Source: Pseudomonadota bacterium
Lineage (GTDB): Bacteria > Pseudomonadota > Gammaproteobacteria > UBA9214
Reading direction: 5' to 3'
Assembly: GCA_039714975.1 (NCBI GenBank)
Contig: JBDLIH010000001.1
Span: forward strand, 34,756-98,755
Length of the DNA: 64,000 bases
Part shown: positions 23,200 through 63,275 of the stretch, piece by piece
Position numbering within the stretch: position 1 is the stretch's first letter
Layout of the letters: the number at the start of each line of letters is the position of its first letter
Notes under the pieces: generated by a model
What the model was told of the DNA's origin: nothing
What the model saw: only the letters and a program-made list of their open reading frames with translations
The model's database searches: none
Made by a program: the position numbers and the translations under genes

Positions 23200-23221
23200 G
23201 CAGCAATCAAGGGGGACTTTC

Positions 23222-23338
23222 AAGCTGAGTGCCAGATTTATTATTAGCCACGAAACCCACGAAAGGACACGAAAGAATTCCCAGAAAGGATTTTATTTTT
23301 CTGTGTTTTCCGTGGATTCCGTGGCAAATGTTTTTTTC
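23222..23338. repeat. Palindromic intergenic repeat, copy A (CACGRAA-heptad family)
   Basis: AAGCTGAGTGCCAGATTTATTATTAGCCACGAAACCCACGAAAGGACACGAAAG...TTTTCCGTGGATTCCGTGGC. The left 55 nt is near-identical to copy D at 58735; the arms are inverted copies carrying three CACGRAA units at about 10 bp spacing. Between convergent nadB and acyP. Confidence 0.7.
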
Positions 23339-23343
23339 TTTAA

Positions 23344-34296: not shown

Positions 34297-35645
34297 TGCA
34301 TTCCCTGCACAGTCGACTGCTACTGGCTGCTTCCCTGGTACTTGCCGGATTCCTCGGCGCAACCGGTCTCGCGCTCGACAAGGCCTTTCGTGTCAGTGCC
34401 GAGGCCGCCATGCAGGACCGCCTGCAGTCTCATGTCTACGCCCTGCTCGCTGCTGCAGACGAAGATGGGGACGGCCGCATGATCCCGGCAGATGAGCTAC
34501 CGGAGCCACGTTTTTCGAAACCGGACTCAGGTCTGTATGCTGTTATCAGCAACCACGACAGTGAACCGCTGTGGCACTCCGGTTCACTGACCGGCCGGGA
34601 CTTTGACCTGGGGGAACAGCAAAAACCCGGTGAGCGCCGCTTTAACCGGCTTGCCCGTTCGGGCATGCAACTGTATGCCCTCGCGTATGGCGTCGCCTGG
34701 GAAGACTATGCCGGTACGGAATCACTGTATACGTTCACTGTGGCAGAAGACACCTCTGTGTTCCAGGCAGAGATTGACAGTTTCCGCTCCACCCTGTGGC
34801 GCTGGCTTGGCGGCATGGCACTGGTGTTGCTGCTCGCGCAGGGTTTCATCCTGCGTTGGGGCTTGCGGCCACTGCGGACCGTCACCGCCGACCTGCAACA
34901 GATCGAACAGGGCCGCACTGACCGCCTTGACGGACACTACCCCAAAGAACTCACCGGCCTGACCTCCAGCCTGAATTCCCTGGTCGAACACAGCAAGGCA
35001 GTACAGGTCCGATACCGCAACAGCCTCGATGACCTCGCCCACAGCCTGAAAACACCTTTGGCCATTTTGCAGTCCAGTGATGCAGACGACCGCAGCGACC
35101 CGGGTGACAATCACGCCCTGGTCAGGGAACAGGTGGAACGCATGGATGAAATCATCAGCCATCAACTGCAACGTGCCGCCGTATCCGGCCGGACCACACT
35201 GGCCAAACCGGTGCCGGTCAGCAAGGTCGTGGAACGGCTGGTGCGCTCCCTCGACAAGGTGTACCGGGAAAAACACGTGACGGTTGAGCTGGAACTGGAT
35301 CCGTCAGTCACCTTCACCGGCGACAAGGCCGACCTGACGGAGATCCTGGGTAACCTGCTGGAGAATGCCTACAAGTACTGTCACCATGCGGTGCGGGTCA
35401 GCGTGAGCACTGATCAACAGGCCGATGGCGTTGAGATCAGAATCGAAGATGACGGCCCGGGCATAACACCTGAACAGGTCGACACACTCCTGCAACGCGG
35501 CAGGCGCATGGACGAGTCAATACCCGGCCAGGGCATCGGCCTGAGCATGGCCAACGAGATTATTACCGTGTACGGCGGTCAACTGGTATTTGCTGCCAGC
35601 CCTCTGGGGGGCACCTTGTTGCGGGTAATATTCAACGATCAATAG
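34296..35645 (+). CDS. Sensor histidine kinase (PhoQ-like)
   Basis: Two TMs flanking a periplasmic domain, HAMP, H-box LAHSLKTPLAIL, N/G boxes NLLENAYKY...DDGPGI...GQGIGLS. 449 aa. Confidence 0.88.
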   Translation: MHSLHSRLLLAASLVLAGFLGATGLALDKAFRVSAEAAMQDRLQSHVYALLAAADEDGDGRMIPADELPEPRFSKPDSGLYAVISNHDSEPLWHSGSLTGRDFDLGEQQKPGERRFNRLARSGMQLYALAYGVAWEDYAGTESLYTFTVAEDTSVFQAEIDSFRSTLWRWLGGMALVLLLAQGFILRWGLRPLRTVTADLQQIEQGRTDRLDGHYPKELTGLTSSLNSLVEHSKAVQVRYRNSLDDLAHSLKTPLAILQSSDADDRSDPGDNHALVREQVERMDEIISHQLQRAAVSGRTTLAKPVPVSKVVERLVRSLDKVYREKHVTVELELDPSVTFTGDKADLTEILGNLLENAYKYCHHAVRVSVSTDQQADGVEIRIEDDGPGITPEQVDTLLQRGRRMDESIPGQGIGLSMANEIITVYGGQLVFAASPLGGTLLRVIFNDQ

Positions 35646-45655: not shown

Positions 45656-46210
45656 TTAATCCTGGCCTCGCTTGTTCAATGCCCGCCGACCCCATGTCCA
45701 GACGTAATCAAAACCGCTCCAGAGGGTCGTTGCCAGTACACTGTACAAAATGATGTCCAGCCATAATGGCGGCAGTTCATGGATTCCCTGGCTAAAAATA
45801 ACGGCCAGTACCAGCAGGATCTGGGCAAAGGTATTCAGCTTGCTGACCATGCTTGGCTCGGCTTCAAGGCGTTCGACACGCATATGAAACATGATGGCAC
45901 CGCCAACGATAACCAGGTCACGCAGCACTACCAGTGCGACCAGCCACAGGGGTATCCAGCCCATCCACCCGAGCGTCACAAAACAGGATACCAGCAGGAG
46001 TTTGTCGGCCAACGGGTCCATCAATGCGCCCAGGCGACTGGTCCAGTTGTTACGCTTGGCCAGGTAGCCATCCAGCCCATCGGATAAACCGGCAACACCA
46101 AAAAGAATCAGGGCCGCACCAAAACGTTCATTCAACAGCAGCATAACGACGGGCGGCACCAGTAAAAAACGGAAGCCCGTTATCAGGTTGGGTATATCGC
46201 GAGCCTTCAC
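45656..46210 (-). CDS. CDP-alcohol phosphatidyltransferase family protein (PgsA-like)
   Basis: DGLDGYLAKRNNWTSRLGALMDPLADK (D-G-x2-A-R...G-x3-D-x3-D motif) and multiple TMs. 184 aa. Confidence 0.8.
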   Translation of the reverse strand: MKARDIPNLITGFRFLLVPPVVMLLLNERFGAALILFGVAGLSDGLDGYLAKRNNWTSRLGALMDPLADKLLLVSCFVTLGWMGWIPLWLVALVVLRDLVIVGGAIMFHMRVERLEAEPSMVSKLNTFAQILLVLAVIFSQGIHELPPLWLDIILYSVLATTLWSGFDYVWTWGRRALNKRGQD

Positions 46211-48483: not shown

Positions 48484-48570
48484 TCTCGCCAAGGCGCAAA
48501 GATCGCAAAGAAAAACATACCGTTAGAACAGTACGATTTTAACTTTGCGATCTTTGCGTCTTGGCGAGAA
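48484..48570. repeat. Near-perfect 27 bp inverted repeat with 32 nt loop between purM and purN
   Basis: CTCGCCAAGGCGCAAAGATCGCAAAG (48485-48510) and CTTTGCGATCTTTGCGTCTTGGCGAG (48544-48569) with a single G/A difference (G-U in RNA), followed by AATTATTCTTTCT. Confidence 0.7.
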
Positions 48571-50026: not shown

Positions 50027-50035
50027 CCGATCCCG

Positions 50036-50180
50036 TCATTCCCGCGAAAACGGGACAAAAGCGCGTAGCACGTTGAACGCCCAAAGGGCGGCCCGAAAGG
50101 GTGAGCATAGCGAATTATCCAGTAACGCATAGAAATTGATTTCTGGATTCCGGGTCTTCGCTACGCTCCGCCCGGAATGA
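50036..50180. repeat. Nested imperfect palindromic element with GNRA-like mini-hairpins between convergent DUF3108 gene and dcd
   Basis: Outer CGTCATTCCCGCG / CGCCCGGAATGACG, inner GCGTAGC / GCTACGC, and internal GCCCAAAGGGC and CCCGAAAGGG hairpins. Contains GGATTCCGGG, reminiscent of the CACGRAA repeat family arms. Confidence 0.4.
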
Positions 50181-50189
50181 CGTATTTCT

Positions 50190-50798: not shown

Positions 50799-50905
50799 GC
50801 TCCTGTGAGTGAAAGACAAGGCGAAAATCCACGGGGAAGCGGAGCGTACAAATAGTACGTGAGCATTTTCCGTGGATTTTTAACGCCGTATTTCGCCACA
50901 GGAGC
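50799..50905. repeat. Palindromic intergenic repeat, copy C (variant with AAATCCACGG core)
   Basis: GCTCCTGTG...GGCGAAAATCCACGGGGAAGCGGAGCGTAC AAATAG TACGTGAGCATTTTCCGTGGATTTTTAACGCCGTATTTCGCCACAGGAGC: near-symmetric about the centre. Shares the ATCCACGG / CCGTGGAT core with copies A, D and E. Confidence 0.65.
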
Positions 50906-58109: not shown

Positions 58110-58736
58110 ATGCAGTATCGCCAGATAATCATCACCACCATCATCCTGCTGCTGTTTGCCGTGATCGGTACCACCCTGGTGGCCTTCACCTTTGACAAGA
58201 CCCGTGAACAGATCGCCGCCAATGAACGCGCCACCCTGCTACGTAAACTGCATCGCCTGATCACACCGGACCAGCATGACAACATGCTGCTGGAAGACGC
58301 CGTATCTGTCGCGGATGAAGCACTGCTCGGCACTGATAAACCTGTCATGGTTTACCGTGCCCGCAAGGACGGTGAACCGGTCGCGCTGGTGATCGCGGCC
58401 ATTGCACCGGATGGATACAGCGGTTCTATCAAGATACTGGTCGGCATCAATGTAGACGGTTCCCTGAGCGGTGTGCGCGTGGTTGCCCACCGCGAAACCC
58501 CCGGCCTCGGCGACGCCATTGATGAAGCCCGCTCGGACTGGATACACATTTTTGATGGCAAATCACTGCAATCACCCGTCATAAGCCGCTGGGCTGTGAA
58601 GAAAGACGGTGGCGATTTTGATCAACTGACCGGCGCCACCATCACCCCGCGTGCCATGGTTAGAGCAGTGCGTAATGCCCTGCTATACTACCGTGACCAT
58701 CAGGAAGAATTGTTTGCACCAGCAGCACCAGATTAA
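58110..58736 (+). CDS. rnfG: Electron transport complex subunit RnfG
   Basis: N-terminal TM, FMN-binding domain with TGATITPRA (covalent FMN Thr). Confidence 0.9.
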   Translation: MQYRQIIITTIILLLFAVIGTTLVAFTFDKTREQIAANERATLLRKLHRLITPDQHDNMLLEDAVSVADEALLGTDKPVMVYRARKDGEPVALVIAAIAPDGYSGSIKILVGINVDGSLSGVRVVAHRETPGLGDAIDEARSDWIHIFDGKSLQSPVISRWAVKKDGGDFDQLTGATITPRAMVRAVRNALLYYRDHQEELFAPAAPD

Positions 58737-58852
58737 GCTGAGTGCCGGATTTTTTAATGGCCACGAAATCCACGGAAGAACACGGAAATATTTCTTAAAA
58801 GGCCTTTATTTTTTCGTGGTTTTCGTGGATTCCGGGGCTGATTTTTTTGCTT
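58735..58852. repeat. Palindromic intergenic repeat, copy D (CACGRAA-heptad family), inserted between rnfG and rnfE
   Basis: AAGCTGAGTGCCGGATTTTTTAATGGCCACGAAATCCACGGAAGAACACGGAAA - loop TATTTCTTAAAAGGCCTTTATT - TTTTCGTGGTTTTCGTGGATTCCGGGGC. Begins in the rnfG stop codon. The rnfG-rnfE spacer (146 bp) is the only large gap in the rnf operon. Confidence 0.75.
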
Positions 58853-58881
58853 TTTCAGATTGAATCAGTAGAGGCAGGCAG

Positions 58882-60453: not shown

Positions 60454-60792
60454 ATGTCACAAAAAGCTTTAAAGAAACCCCTGGCCATTGCCCTTGGTGC
60501 CGCATTCGTAACTTCTCTGGCCGGTACCCCGGTTGCCAATGCGGCGGAAAACCCGTTTGCCATGTCCGAGCTGTCCAGCGGCTACGTAGTAGCCGAGATG
60601 GAAGAAGGCAAGTGCGGCGAAGGCAAGTGCGGCGGCGACAAGGCCAAGAAAGAAGGCAAGTGCGGCGGTGACAAGGCCGCCACTGAAGACAAGGCCACAG
60701 CAGAAGGCAAGTGCGGTGAAGGCAAGTGCGGTGGCGAGAAGAAAGTGGAAGAAGGCAAGTGCGGTGAAGGCAAGTGCGGCGCTAGCAAGTAA
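60454..60792 (+). CDS. Secreted Cys-repeat RiPP precursor peptide (bufferin-like, EGKCG-repeat type)
   Basis: ATG 60454 with GGAGG RBS (M6 of track ORF). Sec signal MSQKALKKPLAIALGAAFVTSLAGTPVANA|AENPF..., then 7 Cys in EGKCGEGKCGG / EGKCGG modules. Directly upstream of the DUF692 and DUF2063 genes. Confidence 0.7.
   Translation: MSQKALKKPLAIALGAAFVTSLAGTPVANAAENPFAMSELSSGYVVAEMEEGKCGEGKCGGDKAKKEGKCGGDKAATEDKATAEGKCGEGKCGGEKKVEEGKCGEGKCGASK
60604..60790 (+). repeat. Tandem 15 bp coding repeats (GAAGGCAAGTGCGGN, 7 copies) inside the precursor gene
   Basis: gaaggcaagtgcggcgaaggcaagtgcggcggc ... gaaggcaagtgcggtgaaggcaagtgcggt...: visible by eye. Generates the antisense artefact ORF 60582..61004 (PHLPSPHLPS repeats). 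Confidence 0.8.
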
Positions 60793-63123: not shown

Positions 63124-63153
63124 CCCGGACATTTTTTTAAAGAACACCCAATT

Positions 63154-63233
63154 GGCCACGGAATCCACGAAAACCACGAAAAAATAAAAGCCTTATAAGA
63201 AATCTTTCCGTGTTCTTCAGTGGATTTCGTGGC
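63154..63233. repeat. Palindromic intergenic repeat, copy E (CACGRAA-heptad family, inverted orientation relative to copy D)
   Basis: GGCCACGGAATCCACGAAAACCACGAAAA - loop AATAAAAGCCTTATAAGAAATC - TTTCCGTGTTCTTCAGTGGATTTCGTGGC. The loop and right arm are the reverse complement of copy D's loop and left arm. Confidence 0.7.
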
Positions 63234-63275
63234 TATATTATTTTTTAGTAAGTGATATACGGGGCTTTTCACAAA

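Follow-up and report, generated by a model that had tools for sequence, protein, structure and literature searches.

The intervening sequences (IVSs) of bacterial 23S rRNA genes are the closest described counterparts of the elements treated here. In Coxiella burnetii the IVS is a 428-nt selfish element in the 23S rRNA gene, with an inverted-repeat stem that is cut by RNase III and an internal S23p open reading frame (ORF) (PMC4990558). Its 'three, tandem heptameric repeats (GACAGAT)', the first of which begins where RNase III cuts, were left unexplained (PMC4990558). That study, from 2016, described the origin and mobility of IVSs as still poorly understood (PMC4990558). We have analyzed a 64,000-nt stretch of DNA (the window; positions 34,756 to 98,755 of contig JBDLIH010000001.1, GenBank assembly GCA_039714975.1) from a gammaproteobacterium of the UBA9214 lineage, in which three related hairpins, designated copies A, D and E, lie in intergenic spacers, one of them between rnfG and rnfE.

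Like IVSs, the family of these hairpins has an inverted-repeat stem that encloses a small ORF or a short loop and carries three tandem heptamers, and the units are almost the same, GACAGAT in Coxiella and CACGGAA, ACAGGAT, CACAGAT and others in the arms described here. IVSs are moreover regarded as selfish and horizontally transferred, and as tolerated because they sit in a transcript without destroying it. The differences are that the copies in the window occupy spacers of protein-coding operons rather than rRNA helices and contain no ORF, that the ORF of the arm family encodes a PD-(D/E)XK nuclease and not the four-helix S23p protein, and that RNase III excision, which IVSs undergo, is a prediction for the present elements.

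Other systems share parts of this design. REPINs, which are hairpins of repetitive extragenic palindromic (REP) sequences, and the REP-associated tyrosine transposases (RAYTs) comprise short dispersed hairpins that lack target-site duplications (TSDs) and a small protein gene flanked by the same repeats (PMC3116915). Bacterial MITEs (miniature inverted-repeat transposable elements) such as Correia/NEMIS, ERIC and RUP resemble the present elements in length (~80-190 nt), in their terminal inverted repeats, in their intergenic and intra-operon insertions, and in forming long RNA hairpins if transcribed. Free-standing homing-endonuclease genes likewise place a small nuclease gene in a short selfish unit. 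The nuclease family that proved relevant here, PDDEXK_3 (GxxExxY / PF13366), was listed in a 2012 survey of PD-(D/E)XK proteins with the function 'Unknown' and with multiple transfers (PMC3424549). We found no later paper on GxxExxY function in the literature and none that ties these proteins to flanking repeats.

We consider it fairly probable, at about 60%, that A, D and E are gene-less (miniature), IVS-like copies of a horizontally spread selfish family associated with GxxExxY nucleases. The unit of the family would be an inverted pair of arms, each made of three tandem ~9-10-nt units (CCACGGAA plus 1-3 nt), around a short loop or a small gene. Full-length members enclose a gene for a GxxExxY protein (TIGR04256 / PF13366) of ~125 amino acids (aa), a minimal PD-(D/E)XK nuclease, and are built like a 23S rRNA IVS, although they lie between the genes of ordinary operons. 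By analogy, the heptad-arm class is already known from rRNA in the form of IVSs. To our knowledge, the abundance of gene-less hairpins in ordinary operon spacers, GxxExxY as a second cargo, and the covariation of unit and protein are apparently undescribed.

Copies A, D and E and related hairpins in other genomes

The related spans in the window are 23222-23343 (A), 58735-58852 (D) and 63137-63245 (E), in the convergent gap between nadB and acyP, in the rnfG/rnfE spacer and downstream of doxX, respectively, and thus outside 23S rRNA helix 25 or 45. The places given for rnfA, B, C, D, G, E, nth, DoxX, nadB and acyP in a preliminary description made from the sequence are borne out by Pfam, and Rfam at gathering thresholds has no match anywhere in the window, rRNA included. 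When anchored on the outer 18 nt of the arm, the core measures exactly 79 nt in all three copies (23247-23325, 58760-58838 and 63155-63233). Each core has 29-nt arms of the form GCCACGRAAYCCACNRAAGRACACGRAA; the arms of D and E form terminal inverted repeats that depart from the canonical arm at no more than 2 positions. Pairwise alignment of A and D gives 79% identity across 114 nt. D and E are 91% complementary across 87 nt, so that E is D inverted, loop included, as the preliminary description had it. A profile made from copies in foreign genomes matches D at 58729-58869 (nhmmer, E=3.8e-24) and A at 23220-23327 (E=2.6e-21), both on the plus strand, and the bare hairpin E at 63153-63237 on the minus strand (E=4.9e-20), at a break in synteny. 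The three copies are related far beyond chance. Their single strands fold at -31 to -38 kcal/mol (z -3.2 to -5.2).

In copy D the left arm, GCCACGAAATCCACGGAAGAACACGGAAA, spans 58760-58788, the loop, TATTTCTTAAAAGGCCTTTAT, 58789-58809, and the right arm, TTTTTCGTGGTTTTCGTGGATTCCGGGGC, 58810-58838; the right arm is 1 nt shorter in register than the left and its outer unit is mutated. A related loop recurs in many foreign copies. Three CACGRAA units per arm had been reported at a spacing of 10-11 bp. The number holds, whereas the measured spacing is 9 and 10 nt, the units of the left arm of D starting at 58762, 58771 and 58781. In the left arm of A all units read CACGAAA. The window contains 27 CACGRAA heptamers against 16.9 +/- 3.8 expected, a number reached in 0 of 100 shuffles, and the excess is located in A, D and E. 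A weak arm-like match to the element profile, TTATTTTTAGCCAGGGAATCCATG at 45778-45808 on the minus strand (E=0.0026), is probably chance or a very decayed solo arm.

We scanned a degenerate arm pattern against one genome per GTDB species and found it in at least 119 stretches from dozens of genomes of several phyla. Among the matches listed are many Marinobacter spp., Tamilnaduibacter, Oceanisphaera, Vogesella and another member of the Neisseriaceae, Ectothiorhodospiraceae, Thiohalobacterales, Cocleimonas, many uncultured or unnamed gammaproteobacterial metagenome-assembled genomes (MAGs), Desulfobulbia and Thermodesulfobacteriota MAGs, one Nitrospirota MAG, and one 'Halobacteria' MAG in which mis-binning is possible. 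Because the arms are shared across phyla, the sequences point clearly to horizontal spread of the family, which is unlike REPIN-RAYT pairs, described as mostly vertically inherited (PMC3116915). The number of stretches bears out the earlier view that the resemblance among the copies is not due to chance.

Within 0.92 Mb of the matching stretches 124 elements could be paired. Their modal size is 79-81 nt, and the remainder, 90 to 546 nt long, have unrelated interiors, nested arms or tandem arrays. Thirty-four short foreign copies share the arms and the loop AAATTTCT.A..GG..TT.TT, and their hairpin runs 2 nt past GCC...GGC, all 34 having T at -2 and 33 of the 34 having A at +2. These elements are intergenic and their flanks are AT-rich (~80% A+T). 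A canonical copy of 80 nt had no BLAST match among 72,556 plasmids, the arm sequences were found in no paper in full-text literature searches, and nothing relevant was found in the literature on MITE or REP sequences of Marinobacter. Tandem arrays with units of ~200-285 nt occur at L118 2980-4150, L069 680-1440 and L041 2939-3346; these are mosaics of several repeat families, in which CACGGAA arms are combined with runs of CACGTCT heptads and REP-like GTAGGGTGC...GCACCCTAC palindromes.

The three direct units per arm at about one helical turn, with the arms inverted, would also suit an array of operators or iterons for a chromosomal regulator or a host replication protein unrelated to GxxExxY. 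The copies, however, lie after gene 3' ends and in convergent gaps much more frequently than in divergent promoter regions, with roughly 49 co-directional, 17 convergent and 8 divergent contexts by a crude ORF calling that mis-assigned the window's own neighbors and is of qualitative use only. The flanking genes are unrelated, and from genome to genome the motif changes along with the nuclease gene that it encloses, as described below. We judge a regulatory array of this kind to be very unlikely.

In several MAGs the hairpin is embedded in a composite of ~190 nt with its own 32-nt terminal inverted repeats, CTAGTAC.CTTTCAAC.TGATAATAACGGAT, which are often flanked by TA. A and D keep parts of this composite, namely AAGCTGAGTGCCRGATTT on the left and TCAGRT on the right; D corresponds to positions 42-187 and A to positions 46-157 of the 193-position model. 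In at least five copies (L109 2040-2120, L038 6039-6118, L094, L054 and L060) the loop is inverted relative to asymmetric outer flanks, a 'flip/flop' that suggests inversion or re-synthesis through the palindrome.

The outer repeats raise the question of a classic MITE, an insertion sequence (IS) deletion derivative that a DDE transposase would mobilise in trans by binding to its arms or to the terminal repeats outside them. Terminal inverted repeats around variable interiors, presence or absence at orthologous sites, and the derivation of A and D from the composite would all suit this explanation. No TSD was seen at the hairpin ends, however, as the longest flanking direct repeat in the 34 short copies averages 2.59 nt, against 2.51 nt for re-paired flanks, and none was present in 45 gene-bearing copies. 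No transposase was found beside 59 solo arms, where the inward ORFs are housekeeping genes without a recurrent family (CysQ-like, LarC-like, prepilin peptidase, RseP and short-chain dehydrogenase/reductase, by eye from translations), nor any cognate transposase-encoding IS, nor, as said, a plasmid match. The sole recurrent gene between the arms encodes a nuclease of 125 aa, which is smaller than any known transposase and does not have the fold of one. Copy D, moreover, is without the left terminal repeat of the composite. The exchangeable interiors and the nuclease gene in the long forms also distinguish the family from the MITEs described in bacteria, and we consider a classic MITE improbable. 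Of the 'MITE-like' mobility proposed earlier, mobility stands, on the at least 119 stretches elsewhere and an empty junction in one relative, while the character of a classic MITE does not.

GxxExxY genes between the arms

Some members enclose a gene. In L078 (Marinobacter daqiaonensis) arms at 1638...2203 surround an ORF at 1687-2091 that matches PF13366 (E=1.4e-39), and in L028 arms at 2519...2951 enclose an ORF of ~125 aa. The gene-bearing members of L078, L028, L208, L211 and L215 match TIGR04256, 'GxxExxY protein', at about E=1e-38 to 1e-43, and the arms of L078, L028, L208 and L215 match the same pattern as D and E. The arm family that brackets GxxExxY genes includes A, D and E. L090 has a third such gene, which lies among arms of another family (CGCAAAG/CGCCAAG units). 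Proteins annotated in Marinobacter, Tamilnaduibacter, Oceanisphaera and Thiohalobacter are close homologues of the L078 protein, and these taxa either have hairpins or are closely related to taxa that do. In the sample the gene-less forms outnumber the gene-bearing ones by about 60:1. The gene-less loop could not be derived from the internal ends of gene-bearing copies, where only about 5-8 extra nt align beside the right arm, a signal that is too weak.

Close relatives of the L028 protein are encoded in a lipid (APE-like) operon of Desulfobulbaceae, where the gene exactly fills the space from the stop codon of the preceding gene to the ATG of the following one. It occupies one spacer in L208 and L215 and another spacer of the operon in L211-L214 (88-90% identical), always with CACGGAA arms. 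A paralogue that is only 62% identical has CACAGAA arms and a decayed second copy beside it. Genes of the PF05635 (S23p) family occur in the same operons in L208, L211 and L215 and are flanked by inverted arms of 8-9-nt units. The presence of the same nuclease gene in different spacers of one operon in different genomes recalls free-standing homing-endonuclease genes. Unlike the latter, GxxExxY has no known target cleavage and no intron or intein context, and the gene-less form here has its own conserved loop and numerical excess. Nearly every spacer of the operon is filled with heptad or octad arrays or hairpins (AGAAGTTA/AGGAGGTA; ACAGAAT/CAGGAT), as at L208 4187-4257, 4715-4796 and 5671-5790, L215 4164-4311 and 5681-5839, and L211 9029-9162. 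Some purine-rich units of these spacers contain GGAGG directly before start codons and may serve as ribosome-binding sites as well.

A metagenome scan with an alignment of three proteins (L078, L028 and L090) recovered 80 GxxExxY loci, 41-58% identical, 72 of them with both flanks. Inverted arms scored above the 99th percentile of shuffled flanks in 62 of the 72 and above the shuffle maximum in 56, and the median score was 19 for inverted against 11 for direct comparison of the flanks. The best internal period of these arms was 9 nt in 30 loci, 10 nt in 11 and 8 nt in 7 (8-10 nt in 48/62), and in most loci the arms lie 3-60 nt from the gene ends. The units include GACAGGAT, CACGGAT, CACAGAT, CGCAGAT and AGGGGAT, the units of one arm sharing one core motif. 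In 41 of 51 cases the nearest protein neighbor has the same unit class, against 16.2 expected. Bracketing by arms is therefore near-universal among these genes, and the unit motif tracks the lineage of the GxxExxY protein. Viral contigs supplied two further arm-bracketed cases; of the S23p family, viral contigs yielded two distant phage genes, neither of which has arms.

The GxxExxY family is large, with 29,054 cluster representatives at E <= 0.001 (clusters at 50% identity). No chain in the PDB is related to it by sequence. An AlphaFold (AF2) model with a predicted local distance difference test score (pLDDT) of 95.5 has a minimal PD-(D/E)XK core, and its nearest folds are the Cas4 core (SSO0001), archaeal Hjc resolvases and lambda-exonuclease-type nucleases. 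Residues D65, E75 and K77 (D...ELK), as well as E26 in the GxxExxY helix, show no variation or almost none. Because of this conservation and the proximity of the model to the Cas4 and Hjc folds, the predicted nuclease looks active. Many GxxExxY 'proteins' among the matches in a library of representatives (P0241, P0242, P0246 and others) are ~260 aa long and contain the full domain twice, either because gene callers read through stop-free arms and joined tandem genes or because the domain is truly duplicated.

In a Marinobacter species all contigs that were read (L222-L231) have the GxxExxY gene at the same locus, flanked by genes for DUF2442 and Fic proteins, and at L231 1375-1866 (complete genome CP101118.1) a complete CACGAAA hairpin stands immediately upstream of the gene with no downstream arm. 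This arrangement is reminiscent of single-copy RAYT genes, and the covariation of repeat motif and protein lineage is a further likeness to REPIN-RAYT systems. An actual REPIN-type element moved by a RAYT, an HUH tyrosine transposase, would account for this locus and for a hairpin doublet that is intergenic, of high copy number and free of TSDs. The arms are nevertheless triplets of direct units and not palindromic REP units, without the GTAG head, the associated gene is of the PD-(D/E)XK type (PF13366 / TIGR04256) and not HUH (Y1), and in L118 true REP-like units, GTAGGGTGC, form a repeat of their own next to the hairpins. We give a REPIN origin hardly any credence.

The rnfG/rnfE copy and other repeats in the window

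The rnf operon is packed, as had been noted, with gaps of -8 to 23 nt except for the rnfG/rnfE spacer of 145 nt. This spacer is filled by 58729-58869, the span with homology to the composite. The element begins, in agreement with the preliminary description, in the rnfG stop codon TAA (58734-58736), which lies inside the element-derived sequence CAGATTAAGCTGAG. Since homology to the profile starts at 58729 and so already upstream of it, the stop codon derives from the element, as do probably the last one or two codons of rnfG. The RnfG of the window is identical to a protein from an NCBI 'Pseudomonadota bacterium' MAG. Relatives L120, L122, L123, L124, L125 and L126, whose RnfG is 83-94% identical in a protein search (82-92% over aligned residues), carry the orthologous element at rnfG/rnfE, beginning at TAAGCTGAG. 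In L121 (RnfG 88-90% identical) there is no spacer, the rnfG stop codon overlaps the rnfE ATG (TAATG), and RnfG has a longer tail (...APAVTTATSNQ), as in more distant homologues. This comparison of rnf operons, which the preliminary description had called for, marks the rnfG/rnfE copy as an old insertion that, to judge by the alignments, donated the stop codon of rnfG.

The element of these relatives is 76-96% identical to the copy in the window, compared with 59-80% at four-fold degenerate sites of rnfG and rnfE, which indicates moderate constraint or conversion by other copies. All of the orthologous copies fold strongly (-41 to -60 kcal/mol). A T7 run (58842-58848) lies 3 nt past the stem of D, and a T-rich tract also follows the stem in the orthologous rnf copies and, on the plus strand, copies A and E. 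The hairpin in rnf could accordingly be a host-selected cis element, a terminator, attenuator or mRNA stabiliser that sets the ratio of rnfABCDG to rnfE-nth, that is, a selfish hairpin since exapted. Retention in six relatives, the slow divergence, the strong folds, and the T-rich tract of the rnf copies and copy A, which is missing from the consensus of the composite, would be expected of it. The same sequence occurs at unrelated loci in several phyla, however, so that its origin is not specific to rnf, and the slow divergence can also stem from conversion. The stem is decaying in L125 and L126, L121 manages with an intact overlapping junction, and a 29-bp stem with a 21-nt loop is unlike a canonical intrinsic terminator. 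We think such a role for the copy doubtful, though it is the alternative with the most to recommend it.

The preliminary description had counted a fourth copy, C, in the family, a palindrome of 107 nt at 50799-50905 (minus strand) in the apbC/dcd spacer. This candidate was rejected: the profile that found A, D and E at E = 1e-20 to 1e-24 has no match there, and only the 8-mer ATCCACGG is common to C and the family, so that of four supposed relatives three remain. Copy C folds much more strongly than these (-61 kcal/mol, z = -11.9) and is kept at the apbC/dcd spacer in relatives (L120 2579-2685, L123 and L126), with 11 pairs changed on both sides; we treat it as a separate element, apparently under structural constraint. 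It contains GTACAAATAGTACG, GACAAGGCGA and AACGCCGTA, which are motifs of Neisseria Correia elements, so that a Correia link is conceivable. A 14-mer from the palindrome occurs in a primer upstream of Neisseria meningitidis porB (PMC4189776). For the family of A, D and E, the earlier opinion that the motif is not of the REP, ERIC or Correia type is right.

A second hairpin family of like architecture, with arms TCTCGCCAAGGCGCAAAGATCGCAAAGAAAAA and CGCAAAG units, is present in the purM/purN spacer at 48484-48569 (-52 kcal/mol, z=-9.3). It is missing from that spacer in L120 and L123. Its arm family is the one that surrounds the GxxExxY gene in L090, and it also occurs in L043 and L095. A further palindromic insert (CGTCATTCCCGCGAAAACGGGA ... 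CCGGAATGACG) lies at 50033-50187 in the DUF3108/dcd spacer; in L120 a 166-nt element with CACGGAA arms is found at the same place, which suggests that this spacer is a landing site for repeats. At 60603-60783 there is a tandem coding repeat of two 82-nt copies, 79% identical (AGAAGGCAAGTGCGGCGAAGGCAAGTGCGG), in a small ORF that is upstream of MbnB/TglH-family and HvfC-family genes and encodes repeats of the GKCGEGKCG type.

Interpretation and significance

If A, D and E are gene-less members of a GxxExxY-associated family, several properties of the family may be inferred, and we give them in order of decreasing confidence. The gene-less hairpins are probably non-autonomous derivatives, given that about 60 of them exist for each gene-bearing copy. 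The repeated units are likely to be recognition sites for a protein, since an RNA stem needs no three similar units and since the units share a core and change with the enclosed gene; the array of binding sites suggested in the preliminary description is thereby supported indirectly. The recogniser may be the GxxExxY protein itself, and the nuclease encoded by some elements would then act in trans on the gene-less hairpins, as RAYTs are thought to act on REPINs. With the least confidence, and by analogy to IVSs, the stems might be processed in transcripts, which would make the copy in rnf the RNA-processing site that had been suggested earlier. The ~29-bp stem in the rnf transcript would be a substrate of RNase III or a 3' barrier, and the insertion would be tolerated between rnfG and rnfE for that reason. 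It is also conceivable, as speculation, that a resolvase-like nuclease acts on a cruciform extruded from its own palindrome, which would explain precise loss, loop flipping and the missing TSDs.

Several observations weigh against this picture. Neither the 64-kb window nor the surrounding +/-10 kb in relatives contains a GxxExxY gene. ORFs of the unrelated PF05635/S23p family sit between arms of the same design, so the ORFs may be cargo and the heptads recognised by something other than GxxExxY. Since A and D hold parts of the ~190-nt composite, they could have been moved by a different system. Neither a recent insertion polymorphism nor an exact junction nor a TSD was recovered, and the insertion boundaries could not be fixed to the base from filled and empty sites at rnfG/rnfE and purM/purN because the flanks are too diverged. 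A simple terminator scan calls none of the hairpins A, D and E, the T7 run after D notwithstanding. G.U and A.C mismatches in gene-bearing arms number 67 and 69, and this absence of strand asymmetry lends no support to the idea that an RNA stem is under selection in the sense transcript. The orthologues of the rnf copy, those of L125 and L126 for example, gather uncompensated stem mismatches, and together with the lack of strand bias this speaks against IVS-like processing of the stem.

A wider proposal, which we offer tentatively and regard as possible but on balance unlikely, is that GxxExxY proteins are the mobility or maintenance nucleases of an unrecognised class of TSD-less hairpins. The repeated units would be bound by the nuclease, gene-less copies would be moved in trans, and the IVSs of 23S rRNA would be members that landed in rRNA. 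Such a class would be a PD-(D/E)XK analogue of REPIN-RAYT systems, acting perhaps on extruded cruciforms in view of the Hjc-like core.

For annotation, the element accounts for the element-derived end of rnfG and for the advice that such spacers are not to be taken for promoters. The element kept inside rnf, an essential-looking respiratory operon, offers a natural case, and the Marinobacter GxxExxY protein with its CCACGGAA arms is available as a concrete protein-DNA pair. If the present reading is right, the abundant intergenic hairpins of this class in marine and sediment bacteria would have an explanation, GxxExxY / PF13366, a large family whose function is listed as unknown, would acquire a role, and the origin and mobility of rRNA intervening sequences would become approachable.

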